Assembly: GCA_001781465.1 (NCBI GenBank)
Contig: MFLD01000031.1
Span: 1-40,505, forward strand
Origin: Candidatus Kaiserbacteria bacterium RIFCSPHIGHO2_02_FULL_49_16
GTDB lineage: Bacteria; Patescibacteriota; Minisyncoccia; Phycocordibacterales; UBA2100
DNA length: 40,505 nucleotides
Direction: 5' to 3'
Positions 2,991-37,844 of the stretch are shown here, one piece after another; position 1 is the stretch's first letter; every line of letters starts with the position of its first letter. Below the pieces are notes generated by a model. The model made no database searches. It was not told the origin of the DNA and saw nothing but the letters and a program-made list of their open reading frames with translations. A program made the position numbers and the translations under genes.

Positions 2991-3092
2991 ATCACCAACT
3001 CTAGCATAAAATGGGGACGATTACATATGCACCTTAGCCGATTCGTAGCTACGAATCGGCATCGCACGCACCTTAGTGCGCGTGACCACGGA

Positions 3093-11448: not shown

Positions 11449-13266
11449 TTACCGCACCTCCCAGCCCCGTTTTTTGACCTCTTTGTATACGCTTTCCATA
11501 ACCGCGTTTGCCTCCTCATCAGTAAGCGTTTTCTCAAAAGATTGAAGCACAAGGCGGAACGCGTATGAGATCTTCCCCGCTTTTTCGAATGTGTCGAATA
11601 ATTCGCTTCGCACGAGAAGCTCTCCTGATTCTTTCCGGATGACTTCCAGAATCTCCTCCGGCTTTGTACCGGTCTCTGTCCAAAGCGCGATATCGCGAAC
11701 GATAAACGGATATCGAGAAAAAGACTGATAGCGTTCGGTTGTTGAAATCGGGAAATTCTCATAGTGATCTGCGTTTACTGTCGTGAGTTTGCCTTCCGTG
11801 ATTTTCCCCCCTTGTTTTGTTTCAATTGCCATACCGACCATCACGCTCTCTCTGCCGCCATTCCACACGGTGCCTATTTCGAATAATTTCACTTCTTTCA
11901 GACCAAGTAAATCTTTACTGCGGACATTCTTCTGGAGCGCCTCCGCGAGCCCGTCCGCAAGATTACCGCGCAGATACGGGCGTACCCCGTCGACTTTGTT
12001 AGCAACCACCCGTTCGCCCTTTTCAGAAAACACAGAGGTGAACACCTCTGAATATCCCTTTTCTATTAATCCCGCGCGGGTTTTTTCGCTCTGAGCGAAA
12101 TTAATATTAATGGCAAGTGCCTCTTTGAGTTCTGGAAGTTCCGCGGAAGGAATTTTATCGTACCCCACTATACGTGCGACTTCTTCCACCAAATCTTCCG
12201 GTATTGAAATATCAAGCCGCTCAAATGGCACCTCAACCTTGAAAATCCTATGAGATGACATCTCATAGGATTTTCGTGTAAGGCCAAGGCGAATGAATGC
12301 ATCTGCGATATCTTTTTCTGTGAGCGAAGTTCCTAGGATTTGATTGACCTGCGCGACAGATACTGAAACCTGTTTCTTTTCTTGCGGTTTAGGATATTCA
12401 TCGGCAAACCCGACAAGTTCGCCACCGGCAATTTTGAGAATTAAATCGGTCGCCGCGCGCATGCCATACGCCGCGAGTTCGGGCGAAATGCTCTGCTCAA
12501 ATCTTTGAGATGCATCGGTACGAAGCTTTAATTGCTGTGCAGTCTTTCGCACCGAAGCGCCATCAAAATTCGCCGACTCAATTATTATGTCTGTTGTTGC
12601 CTCATTCACTTCTGCGACTTTTCCTCCCTTTACGCCTGCAATTCCTATCACGGCATCTGCATTCCCGTCTGCAATAACGAGCATAGATTCCGAAAGTACA
12701 TATTCTTTGGCATCCAACGCCAACATCTTCTCGCCCTTTTTGGCATCTCTAACTTGAATCCTGAATTCACTTTTGCCTATTGCCTCTTGCCTCTTGCCTA
12801 TTTTCCCCGCATCAAACGCATGCAGTGGTTGTCCAATGTTGAACATGACAAAATTTGCCGCATCTACGATGTTGTTGATTGATTTCTGGCCTATTGATTC
12901 AAGGTTCTTTCGCAACCAGTCTGGCGATGCACCAACCTTGACCCCTTTGATATATCCGGCGATATATCGTGCGCACAAAGGGGTATCAATCGAAACTTCC
13001 CCATGTCGGGATTTCGTAAATCCCGACATGGGCTCCCGAAGCGGATCGCCCTTCATCGGAATATTTAAAATCGCCGAAAGCTCCTTTGCGATTCCGCGAT
13101 GCGAGAGGCAATCATGCCCGCGGTTCGGCGTCACTTTAACATCAAGAATTTCATTTTCTACACTCTCAATCTCAAAAGCATGAAATGTGAGAGCGTCAGC
13201 AAGCGTCTGCGCATCAGGCAAAGGTGCGGTGAAAAAAGTCTGGAGCCAGTTGCGAGATATTTTCAT
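11449..13266 (-). CDS. pheT: Phenylalanine--tRNA ligase beta subunit (short form)
   Basis: 605 aa. It has a PheT-type N-terminus (MKISRNWLQTFF), lies downstream of pheS, and ends in an FDX-ACB-like segment (FIVRDIALW...SYAFRLVLQS). Confidence 0.9.
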   Translation of the reverse strand: MKISRNWLQTFFTAPLPDAQTLADALTFHAFEIESVENEILDVKVTPNRGHDCLSHRGIAKELSAILNIPMKGDPLREPMSGFTKSRHGEVSIDTPLCARYIAGYIKGVKVGASPDWLRKNLESIGQKSINNIVDAANFVMFNIGQPLHAFDAGKIGKRQEAIGKSEFRIQVRDAKKGEKMLALDAKEYVLSESMLVIADGNADAVIGIAGVKGGKVAEVNEATTDIIIESANFDGASVRKTAQQLKLRTDASQRFEQSISPELAAYGMRAATDLILKIAGGELVGFADEYPKPQEKKQVSVSVAQVNQILGTSLTEKDIADAFIRLGLTRKSYEMSSHRIFKVEVPFERLDISIPEDLVEEVARIVGYDKIPSAELPELKEALAININFAQSEKTRAGLIEKGYSEVFTSVFSEKGERVVANKVDGVRPYLRGNLADGLAEALQKNVRSKDLLGLKEVKLFEIGTVWNGGRESVMVGMAIETKQGGKITEGKLTTVNADHYENFPISTTERYQSFSRYPFIVRDIALWTETGTKPEEILEVIRKESGELLVRSELFDTFEKAGKISYAFRLVLQSFEKTLTDEEANAVMESVYKEVKKRGWEVR

Positions 13267-13267
13267 A

Positions 13268-13870
13268 CTATTTTAGAAATTGAAATCTTTTTCTACCTTT
13301 CCTGTCCAAAGAGTCAGCTGTTTTTGCCCGACCATCTCTCTGGAGTTTTTGCCACAACTTGCGAGCTTCGTAGCGTACATCAGGACTTGAGTATAGGGAC
13401 GCGCCGTATGCCCTTTTACAGTATGCATGCATCAACGCCAGACGTCGCTCTGCAAGACCACGTCTCTGAAAATCAGAGGATTCCGTAGTTGCTGTCCACT
13501 CAGGGTATGGCGTATGTTTCCCTTGCAACATCTCAGAATGAACGATTGTGCTTTCCCCAGCGATTTTGCCCGAAATAAAATCAACAAAATGGCTCATGCG
13601 AGATTTTGCATAATCCAAACTGTGAGTAGCGATGTAGGAAGTGATCCCAGGTTGCTCGACCTTCAAACTCTCTTCCCAAGGATGAACAGCGCTGAAGCTA
13701 AAACGCGATTCATGTTTGCGTTTACTTTCCAATAATTCCTGCACATTGAGAGGTATCTGCCTCATATCAATCGCTTCAAAGGGGAAAATATCCTCCTGGC
13801 CACGCTCTGGCGGAGTGTAAAGACGCTCCTTTCTTCTCTGAAATAAATTGGTTAATTGCGGGAATTTCAT
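13268..13870 (-). CDS. Orphan 200-aa protein wedged between pheS and pheT
   Basis: Its ATG at 13870 is 2 nt after the pheS TAG. Its TAG at 13268-70 is 1 nt before the pheT ATG. I recognise no motif. Confidence 0.65.
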   Translation of the reverse strand: MKFPQLTNLFQRRKERLYTPPERGQEDIFPFEAIDMRQIPLNVQELLESKRKHESRFSFSAVHPWEESLKVEQPGITSYIATHSLDYAKSRMSHFVDFISGKIAGESTIVHSEMLQGKHTPYPEWTATTESSDFQRRGLAERRLALMHAYCKRAYGASLYSSPDVRYEARKLWQKLQRDGRAKTADSLDRKGRKRFQFLK

Positions 13871-13872
13871 AC

Positions 13873-14673
13873 CTAGAATTGATTAATAAACCTCAAATCC
13901 GCCGAGTGCATAAGACGTATGTCGTCTATGCCCCATTTGAGCATTGCCAGGCGGTCTATTCCGAAACCGAATGCGAATCCTTGATACTTCTCTGAGTCGA
14001 CGCCGGAATTTTTGAGAACATTCGGATGCACCATGCCCGCGCCGCCCATCTCCATCCATTTGTCGCGGAGTTTTTCCGGCACCCTAAACGCTTCGCTTTG
14101 CGAAGCGTCGGGCGAACTTCCCGCTTCGCGGGAAGTTTTAGCCTCCATCAATTGCATATCCACCTCGACTGATGGTTCAGTGAAAGGGAAAAAGCTCGGG
14201 CGAAATCGCACTTCAACGGAGGTACCGCCGAACAGTTCTTGGAAAAATCGCGCTAGAGTTCCTTTGAGTTGCGCAAGCGTCACATCTTCCCCTACCGCAA
14301 GCGCCTCTATCTGAAAGAATTCCGACTCGTGCCCCATATCGGTCGCCTCGTTTCTGAATACCTTGCCCATGGACACTATTCGGTACGGCGGTTGGATTCC
14401 CTTCTTCACTTGAGATTCCATATAGCGTATCTGCACATTCGATGTGTGCGTACGTAGAACATTTCCCTGTTCATTTTTTATGAAGAAAGTGTCCTGCATG
14501 TCGCGCGAAGGATGGTCTTTCGGCACATTTAGGGCGTCAAAGTTGTACCATTCGCTTTCAAGTAAAGGCCCCTCCGCGAGAGAAAACCCCATATCAAAAA
14601 AGATTTTGTTCGCTTCCCGTATCAGAGAAGATATCGGGTGCAAGTGTCCTCTCTGAACGTCCTGCGGTTTCAT
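13873..14673 (-). CDS. pheS: Phenylalanine--tRNA ligase alpha subunit (short form, with an internal insertion)
   Basis: 266 aa with class II motifs ([50 protein letters not shown]). About 25 extra residues precede [10 protein letters not shown]. Confidence 0.95.
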   Translation of the reverse strand: [266 protein letters not shown]

Positions 14674-25126: not shown

Positions 25127-25162
25127 TGATATAGGCTAATTCGCGCGAATTAGCCTATATCA
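25127..25162. promoter_or_regulatory. 36-bp perfect loop-less palindrome between csoR and copA
   Basis: TGATATAGGCTAATTCGC|GCGAATTAGCCTATATCA overlaps the csoR stop codon (25160-25162) and lies 46 nt upstream of the copA ATG. Whether it is an operator or a hairpin is unresolved. Confidence 0.5.
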
Positions 25163-26854: not shown

Positions 26855-26896
26855 GTATGACTCTAGCTCGTCCAGCCGGACGAGCTAGAGTCATAC
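26855..26896. repeat. Perfect 19-bp-stem hairpin (4-nt loop) 3' of the DUF167 gene
   Basis: GTATGACTCTAGCTCGTCC (26855-26873), loop agcc, GGACGAGCTAGAGTCATAC (26878-26896). Confidence 0.9.
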
Positions 26897-32302: not shown

Positions 32303-32445
32303 CTATATCCTCCTTCTATGTGCGGAGAGCAAAGTAACCGTCGCAGTGACAGCCCTCGCTTTCCAGATGCAAACATACAGGGAAGTAAAAAAATCAACTC
32401 TCGGCTTGTGTAGTACATAAAGGCAGTCAGACTGCCCTTGTCCCC

Positions 32446-32470
32446 AAATTGGACATCGGATGTCCAATTT
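32446..32470. repeat. 25-nt palindrome AAATTGGACATC-g-GATGTCCAATTT, left copy
   Basis: Identical 25-mer at 37820-37844. Both copies are preceded by CCCCA and followed by T-rich sequence. Confidence 0.9.
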
Positions 32471-32477
32471 GTTATCG

Positions 32478-37819: not shown

Positions 37820-37844
37820 AAATTGGACATCGGATGTCCAATTT
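37820..37844. repeat. 25-nt palindrome AAATTGGACATC-g-GATGTCCAATTT, right copy
   Basis: Identical to 32446-32470. Here it is followed by TTTT and, 5 nt later, by the leu promoter -35 box. Confidence 0.9.

Follow-up and report, generated by a model that had tools for sequence, protein, structure and literature searches.

The pheS gene of Candidatus Kaiserbacteria bacterium RIFCSPHIGHO2_02_FULL_49_16 contains two perfect hairpins that are the variable arms of one 62-nt copy of a dispersed element. The gene is located in the window analyzed here, a stretch of 40,505 nucleotides (contig MFLD01000031.1) that constitutes contig C31 of a source genome (G000) of 904,852 bp, 46 contigs and 48% G+C. 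Our preferred reading, to which we assign a probability of about 0.8, is that this is a recently entered copy of a two-hairpin mobile element that came to lie between β-strands of the catalytic core of an essential enzyme, left the frame open and is read through.

Architecture of the element in pheS

The host gene and the parts of the element are as follows, with positions given for the window.

13873..14673, minus strand: pheS, phenylalanyl-tRNA synthetase (PheRS) alpha subunit, short 266-amino-acid (aa) form (open reading frame [ORF] and Pfam PF01409).
14082..14143, minus strand: whole two-hairpin element, 62 nt (pattern match and covariance-model match, 65.7 bits, E = 2.5e-14).
14137..14143, minus strand: 5′ junction motif GGCTAAA (TTTAGCC on the plus strand), invariant in 23/23 rows of alignment A2.
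14115..14137, minus strand: hairpin P2, perfect, 10-bp stem, GAA loop on the coding strand (3-nt loop; plus strand, AACTTCCCGC-ttc-GCGGGAAGTT).
14108..14115, minus strand: linker TCGCCCGA (TCGGGCGA on the plus strand), conserved between the hairpins.
14088..14108, minus strand: hairpin P3, perfect, 9-bp stem, AAA loop on the coding strand (3-nt loop; plus strand, ACGCTTCGC-ttt-GCGAAGCGT).
14082..14088, minus strand: 3′ junction motif TTTAGGG (CCCTAAA on the plus strand), invariant in A2.

A previous reading of the letters alone (the sequence-only reading) had reported two perfect hairpins within pheS, at 14088-14108 (P3) and 14115-14137 (P2), and both were confirmed by direct coordinates and by the ORF. 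The 266-aa ORF matched PF01409 with an E value of 7e-93 and 311.1 bits (cutoff, 19.8) and was intact. It was the single pheS match in the source genome, indicating that the insert-bearing copy must work, and the conserved PheS core was retained, with 73/73 invariant columns of alignment A1 present and shared with 14 relatives. The hairpins were situated 537 to 566 nt into the ORF and not in a leader. Three simulations with a third-order Markov model of the genome (stem of at least 9, loop of at most 6) yielded 23, 25 and 20 perfect hairpins; as only ∼20 to 25 are expected in the whole genome, the occurrence of two hairpins 6 nt apart is not due to chance. When folded as RNA, the 70 nt around the hairpins reached −38.5 kcal/mol, compared to −22.25 ± 3.39 for 200 shuffles (z, −4.79).

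In order to locate the indel, the window PheS was aligned with 20 same-genus and 9 same-order proteins obtained from whole-genome searches. The window protein alone had 18 extra residues, placed between the strand ending in EVDM and the strand with KW(I/M)EM(G/M)GAGMVHP. The element was missing from all 20 pheS genes of the genus that were inspected and the insert from all 9 same-order genes, and the gap at the DNA level was 54 nt in 20/20 genus members. The figure of about 25 extra residues in the sequence-only reading is roughly right relative to short-loop PheS proteins, but the exact number relative to the 20 same-genus proteins is 18 (54 nt). Conservation of the segment across distant PheS orthologs, which would have spoken against an insertion, was looked for and not found. 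A 748-nt contig from metagenome run X6 also had no insert. This contig had 6 differences in 347 nt upstream (∼98% identity) and skipped 14083-14153 (71 nt), with 17 other letters instead and hence a net loss of 54 nt; a hand translation indicated that the replacement letters restore a genus-type loop. The lack of the insert in this near relative and in 29/29 relatives indicated that the insertion was recent. Zero-difference Logan contigs from four runs, some of which may be the source sample of the genome assembly, tiled the insert in overlapping pieces (X1, 13700-14117; X3 and X4, 13700-14111; X4 also, 14088-14215), with no single listed piece spanning it.

Solved PheS chains vary in length at the insert point, two of them having a cysteine-rich knuckle; with short-loop forms, the alignment falls into two parts at residues 173/203. 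An AlphaFold2 model produced from a 15-row alignment (mean predicted local distance difference test score [pLDDT], 78.8; predicted template-modeling score, 0.79) placed residues 177-199 in a coil between strands 165-176 and 207-215, with a pLDDT of <50 for residues 180-193. This model suggests that the insert loop is at the enzyme surface, and PheRS most likely tolerates the insert as a passenger. Read in frame, the pheS copy specifies a peptide of ∼20 aa rich in serine, alanine, glutamate and proline.

On the coding strand the plan of the element is GGCTAAA, the P2 hairpin, TCGCCCGA, the P3 hairpin and TTTAGGG, which is the plan of the copies found elsewhere. The CTAAA of the 5′ motif is complementary to the TTTAG of the 3′ motif, and their pairing would result in a three-way junction in which the ends of the element are brought together. 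Pairing was assessed in alignment A2, consisting of 23 rows with the window copy among the 23 seeds, from which covariance model R1 has 62 positions and 21 pairs. Pairing was present in 98.9% of 468 cells, compared to 71.5% in shuffles. All 16 variable pairs exhibited double-sided changes (107 cells versus 30.3 expected), while a one-sided change was detected in 1 cell. None of 500 shuffles reached any of five measures, and slid registers came nowhere near. Helix 1, formed by the end motifs, was 100% paired and never varied; both-sided changes were detected in 8/8 pairs of helix 2 (P2; 97.8% of cells paired) and in 8/8 pairs of helix 3 (P3; 99.4% of cells paired).

Distribution and location of copies

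A BLAST search of the insert against its own genome detected no second full copy, the best match being 16 nt. The family is visible only through its junction motifs and structure. The search for GCTTCGC-containing hairpins that the sequence-only reading had proposed was also performed: the heptamer occurred in 3 of 286 perfect hairpins, two of which were the pheS pair, and its genome-wide count was 257, compared to 216 to 251 in simulations. Such a search would miss the family, which is defined by the three conserved junction motifs and not by the GCTTCGC hairpin sequence. With R1, three strong copies were detected in the source genome, namely, the one in pheS, one in frame in a nuclease-like ORF (C29:796-860) and one in an intergenic region (C19:15312-15369), together with one further weak match. 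Judging from its translation alone, we take the C29 host ORF to resemble ‘SNase-like’ and ‘Excalibur’ proteins.

In the sequenced samples, contigs from other organisms also carried matches of ∼90% to 14082-14143 in different contexts, and a DNA search (BLAST) of 301 genomes of the order detected the same element plan in four same-order genomes. A wider search utilized the pattern GGCTAAA-N(8-30)-TCGCCCRA-N(8-32)-TTTAGGG, with the reversed pattern as a control. In a one-genome-per-species collection, this pattern detected at least 124 loci with 128 copies of 44 to 77 nt; all figures for the 128 copies refer to copies among the matches listed at those loci. The record titles of the matches were nearly all those of Patescibacteria or Parcubacteria groups, and a few matches were due to chance (a GTPase P-loop, a rhamnosidase and a record titled Bordetella). 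Within the order, 47 of 401 genomes were positive, with 1 to 27 copies each, while the reversed pattern gave 0 everywhere. R1 detected copies in 21 of the 60 other genus genomes, showing that the pattern misses copies.

The arms were hypervariable, with 122 distinct P2 and 125 distinct P3 sequences in the 128 copies, and yet almost perfectly complementary. Stem positions comprised 1,779 Watson-Crick pairs, 18 G·T, 15 A·C and 7 others (total, 1,819). The similar numbers of G·T and A·C and the near lack of wobble pairs argue against selection on one RNA strand and favor palindromy at the DNA level.

A majority of the 128 copies were intergenic (n = 82), with 29 in same-strand open frames and 17 in opposite-strand open frames, some of the latter being spurious. 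The GCT-AAA frame was used by 21 of the 29 same-strand copies. Pfam searches with 24 longer frames named as hosts RNase R/II, KsgA, BipA, RecR, an Exo/endo/phosphatase protein, FtsK (three), SecA, an RNase T-like exonuclease, DnaE, TatD and a DEAD helicase, as well as several aminoacyl-tRNA synthetases (ArgRS, two class I enzymes, an enzyme with a tRNA_SAD domain and a second PheS). The second PheS, from another genome (L133:105-656), had the copy in another loop, between MQDTF and LRTHT, and in another frame (WLKPPRGEGSPDHFSNDLGT). A 53-nt, G+C-richer subfamily was enriched in open frames (5/9 versus 11/119) and encoded peptides of the type AKSSEAGSPDAS.EAFRE. The pheS copy resembled this subfamily, its arms being like those of subfamily copies in other genes (P2 apex, GCGAAGC; P3, CGCTTC...GAAGCG). 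The in-frame insertion of palindromic DNA into the core of a class II aminoacyl-tRNA synthetase, in the manner of Rickettsia palindromic elements (RPEs), as proposed in the sequence-only reading, is therefore supported by a lineage-specific insert, a variable loop and a dispersed element present in other housekeeping genes.

Many other copies were associated with stable RNA genes. In 23 of 128 copies, the last 2 to 3 nt overlapped the 5′ end of a tmRNA gene or a tRNA gene (Ser, Glu, Trp or Ala) on the same strand, so that the final GG(G) of the element formed the first nucleotides of the RNA gene. Seven more copies adjoined tRNA ends in other arrangements; the opposite orientation at a tRNA 5′ end was observed only 3 times. 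The tmRNA gene, present once per genome, accounted for ∼9 of these 23 copies, and the same layout was observed in a same-genus genome (L236). Two copies (601-660 and 745-804) were situated inside an RNase P RNA gene (L079:509-968, minus strand; 109 bits, gathering score of 100), which was ∼120 nt longer than expected. The upstream flank was GTTTTAK in 24 tRNA/tmRNA-abutting copies, while the other 104 copies had a weak excess of T. This flank resembles the 3′ end of the element itself, and tandem copies also occurred, which suggests insertion at a junction resembling the element's own end. No marked orientation bias relative to flanking protein genes was detected (32 versus 21 and 14 versus 18). 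As a separate observation, the 39 tRNA/tmRNA genes of the source genome had −10-like boxes (TATAAT, TAAAAT or TAAAGT) ∼10 to 15 nt upstream of the mature 5′ ends; boxes so close would result in transcripts beginning a few nucleotides from the mature end and, hence, in near-leaderless tRNAs.

Mobility, alternative explanations and known systems

Evidence of mobility was obtained from a genome (G225) with 27 to 30 near-identical copies in which similarity ended at GG...GG and the flanks were unrelated; a same-genus genome (G343) had zero copies by the pattern. When GG was not required in the search, 28 of the 30 copies detected were still bounded by GG at both ends; this GG may belong to the element or may reflect a 2-bp duplication. 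Sister copies in G225 differed by loop inversion. We propose that the element is a nonautonomous mobile DNA that would be moved in trans by an enzyme encoded elsewhere, which would recognize the three junction motifs and the hairpin shape and join the element at GG. The hairpins would then be a property of the element DNA with no purpose for PheRS, copies in frame in tolerant loops would survive selection and the rest would persist in intergenic regions or in tRNA/tmRNA leaders. Hairpin-templated copying probably maintains the perfect complementarity of the arms and would account for both the equal rates of G·T and A·C and the inverted loops in sister copies. The leading candidate for the enzyme, put forward tentatively, is a single-strand-DNA HUH/Y1 transposase, a type that is abundant in such genomes. 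A second candidate, to which we give rather less weight, is a site-specific recombinase with a GG core. The Y1_Tnp domain was present in 236 of 401 genomes of the order, in 5/5 element-rich genomes of the genus and as 5 matches in the source genome; it occurred in 41/47 pattern-positive versus 195/354 pattern-negative genomes, in a hand tally that ignored relatedness and relied on a pattern that underdetects copies.

A number of observations weigh against mobility as proposed. No mobilizing enzyme was identified for the element. No Y1_Tnp gene adjoined a copy in 10 element-rich genomes (the nearest was ∼2 to 3 kb away), and one genome (G419) that was 99% complete had 6 copies and no Y1_Tnp match. 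TnpB (PF07282) was present in 0/5 element-rich genomes, and Resolvase (PF00239) was present in 3/5 but only as large serine recombinases in 460- to 580-aa frames. There was no strand bias on one 650-kb contig (6 plus, 8 minus, counted without reference to an origin), which does not favor a replication-fork single-strand mechanism. No clean pair of empty and filled sites was obtained from pheS versus the X6 contig, from the nuclease linker or from G225 versus G343. Insertion of the element with duplication of a GG should have lengthened pheS by 60 nt, but the gain was 54 nt, and the codons flanking the insert also differed from those of the insert-free relative. The copy in the nuclease gene showed no net length gain relative to 9 relatives, in a linker that is variable, and the intergenic DNA of G225 and G343 (two loci searched, one aligned) was too diverged to read. 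The junction motifs were conserved across many families of the order, beyond the expectation for a purely selfish, decaying repeat, which may point to a cellular function; the 128 copies were, moreover, chosen by a pattern that demands the three motifs, such that the invariance of motifs and linker is partly by construction.

This cross-family conservation also bears on an explanation that overlaps with the preferred one but is, in our view, improbable, namely, that the element is primarily a functional RNA or DNA module, for example, a structured 5′ leader or processing signal of tRNA/tmRNA precursors at the RNase P site, with the in-gene copies as by-products. The placement of copies at same-strand tRNA/tmRNA 5′ ends (23 versus 3 opposite at tRNA), the share taken by tmRNA and its recurrence in a same-genus genome, and the two copies inside an RNase P RNA gene would all be consistent with such a module. 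However, G·T and A·C were equally rare (18 versus 15 of 1,819), unlike selected RNA helices, which tolerate G·U; a single one-sided change was detected in 468 cells; there was no marked orientation bias toward flanking protein genes; 354 of 401 genomes of the order had no copy by the pattern; and 0 of 39 tRNA/tmRNA genes identified by aragorn in the source genome carried the element. The terminal GG of the pattern favors RNA genes starting with G, yet GG was found in 28/30 copies detected without that requirement. The sequence-only reading had offered as its alternative that an RNA structure was selected within the pheS mRNA. Regulation of pheS-pheT by such a structure, as a pause, attenuator or stabilizer, would be consistent with the strong RNA fold, and enterobacterial pheST operons are classically under leader attenuation; but the insert was missing from 29/29 PheS genes and from the ∼98% identical contig, it was located inside the ORF and not in a leader, and the same element was present in unrelated genes and in intergenic regions, making this alternative very unlikely.

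A local origin of the palindromes, by template-switch (quasi-palindrome) mutation of pheS without imported DNA, is likewise very unlikely. The source genome does have 286 perfect hairpins versus ∼23 expected, and some palindromes seem to form or grow in place, as in pheT at 13000-13032, where a hairpin replaced resident sequence with the length unchanged. A local event, however, would not explain three junction motifs and a full architecture common to >100 copies elsewhere, arms that resemble a subfamily found in other genes or a score of 65.7 bits on a model derived mostly from other genomes (although the window row is one of the 23 seeds). An assembly artefact or chimera is hardly credible: Logan contigs tended to end within the hairpins, at position 14111 or 14117, but the zero-difference contigs of four runs tiled the insert with overlap, the pheS ORF remained open and the same element was present in hundreds of independent assemblies.

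The mobile-element reading can be extended to a more specific proposal, which we consider doubtful, of an undescribed class of ∼45- to 80-nt site-specific mobile elements in Patescibacteria. These would home to the first nucleotides of tRNA/tmRNA genes (the RNase P cleavage site) and to their own 3′ junction, generating tandems; their arms would be re-perfected by hairpin-templated copying, and a compact fold with joined ends would render them harmless in RNase P RNA and, in one frame, in protein loops. The mobilizing activity would be new and might be either a GG-core recombinase or an RNA-level route tied to release of the leader by RNase P. If such a class exists, genomes that are otherwise under strong reduction would steadily acquire new disordered peptide segments from it. 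The link to tRNA/tmRNA 5′ ends, together with the perfect but hypervariable arms, poses a testable question as to the mobilizing enzyme.

The closest analogue is provided by the RPEs, which one report describes as 100- to 150-bp interspersed repeats abundant in intergenic and protein-coding regions and among which an RPE-7-like insert of 63 to 84 bp is present in PheT of all Rickettsia (PMC1779305). Both types are dispersed hairpin-forming repeats of reduced genomes, located in intergenic regions and in frame in housekeeping genes, and the Rickettsia insert, as described there, affects the partner subunit of the PheS hit here. The present element is shorter (44 to 77 nt, compared to the RPE sizes in that text), occurs in unrelated hosts (Patescibacteria), consists of three fixed motifs separated by two short, perfect hairpins that are hypervariable and has a large share of copies at tRNA/tmRNA 5′ ends. 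The pheS insert, therefore, behaves like an RPE but is set apart from that family by size, host and architecture, and the parallel looks like convergent evolution in reduced genomes. Repetitive extragenic palindromic (REP) sequences and bacterial interspersed mosaic elements, with their REP-associated tyrosine transposases (RAYTs), are also short palindromes forming single-strand hairpins, and the element's host genomes are likewise rich in Y1_Tnp. In classical REPs, a single hairpin located outside genes carries a fixed 5′ tetranucleotide, while the element combines two hairpins with a fixed linker, is often intragenic and, unlike REPtrons, has no Y1 gene beside its copies.

The IS200/IS605-derived palindrome-associated transposable elements are similar in being minimal two-hairpin units, like left- and right-end hairpins, that have no long terminal inverted repeats and whose substrate is likely single-stranded DNA. 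In IS200/IS605-type systems, conserved hairpin sequences are recognized and a fixed short target lies 5′ of the insertion; the hairpins of the present element vary freely, the upstream flank is only T rich, with GTTTTAK restricted to tRNA-abutting copies, and TnpB was not found in the five element-rich genomes. Cyanobacterial small dispersed repeats are tiny nonautonomous repeats with hairpin potential that are both intergenic and intragenic. The element shares these features, and bursts in single genomes (here G225), with them and with the miniature inverted-repeat transposable elements (MITEs) of other bacteria, which are the subject of a review (PMC2229807). Its terminal inverted repeat extends to only 5 of 7 nt (CTAAA/TTTAG in GGCTAAA/TTTAGGG), and the terminal GGs could either have arisen as a 2-bp target duplication or belong to the element itself. 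Searches with short-gap patterns, which did not cover long elements, turned up no parent insertion sequence sharing these ends. Integron attC sites, whose end motifs are alike, were rejected, as the copies are single or tandem in genes and at tRNA ends rather than in cassette arrays (no integrase search was made) and as the stems are 98 to 99% perfectly paired in contrast to the imperfect attC stems with extrahelical bases. A small intron was set aside since both orientations are read through in open frames and removal need not be assumed.

No credible Rfam 15 family was detected over the element at an E value of ≤1 in 8 loci or at the gathering threshold in 13 further loci. The sole overlapping matches were microRNA models far below their gathering scores (L083), and the only Rfam families near element loci were tmRNA, RNase P RNA and 16S rRNA. 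A literature search, with most subscription journals outside its reach, found no description of the element and nothing on REP/RAYT systems in Patescibacteria; hence, the family appears to be undescribed.

These results indicate that ultrasmall, streamlined bacteria still gain protein segments, through a selfish element of 60 nt that is read through in essential enzymes. In the examined sample, six aminoacyl-tRNA synthetase genes, SecA, FtsK and DnaE carried a read-through element, and such lineage-specific loops would otherwise be ascribed to ordinary indels. The three fixed motifs and R1 provide an easy annotation marker that avoids split-gene calls and false ‘extra domains’. As Logan contigs end within the hairpins, the element also helps to explain contig breaks in Patescibacteria assemblies.

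Neighboring genes and other hairpins

Downstream of pheS, the window contains the following gene.

11449-13266: pheT, downstream of pheS and of a 200-aa ORF.

This 200-aa ORF (13268-13870, minus strand), without a Pfam match, sits between pheS and pheT and was not found at the pheS loci of 29 relatives, most of which have pheT directly after pheS; a few have other gaps of 280 to 590 nt. Two perfect hairpins were observed on the minus strand of pheT. One, with a 17-bp stem at 12241-12275, encodes KSYEMSSHRIFK. A hairpin is also present at this site in three or four other genus members (L008, L015 and L002), with the same apex (TGAGATG.n.CATCTCA type) and basal stems that are different but perfectly compensated, while the remaining genus members lack 4 residues there. 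The other, with a 15-bp stem at 13000-13032 (PMSGFTKSRHG), was not associated with a length change relative to 24 PheT relatives and appears to have replaced resident sequence, as in palindrome growth by template switching.

Perfect palindromes are a general trait of the source genome (window examples, 25127-25162, 3037-3060 and 26855-26896), 181 of its 286 hairpins being outside long ORFs. Stems of at least 15 bp were present in 105 hairpins, 61 of which were loopless. Hairpin families were observed in which a conserved centre (..TTATTCGC|GCGAATAA.. or ..TGTACAT|ATGTACA..) is surrounded by variable but perfectly matched outer arms. Y1_Tnp-like genes (∼230 aa) were located at C7:38215-38963, C32:10618-11448, C11:107-1869 and C39:1336-2514 of the source genome. 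Perfect hairpins, each time of a single family, flanked these genes (CATGTCAAGGTG, CCAAGGAC and CAACAC.cga types) in REPtron-like layouts, which probably account for part of the hairpin excess. The hairpin AAATTGGACATC.g.GATGTCCAATTT occurred twice in the window, at 32445-32471 and 37820-37844 (5.4 kb apart), with a relative at C2:7617-7651. Lastly, a distinct repeat built on the same GCTTCGC-ttt-GCGAAGC hairpin, with CCCGCC/GGCGGG flanks, was present at least three times in one same-order genome (L035, L041 and L044) and once in another (L036).

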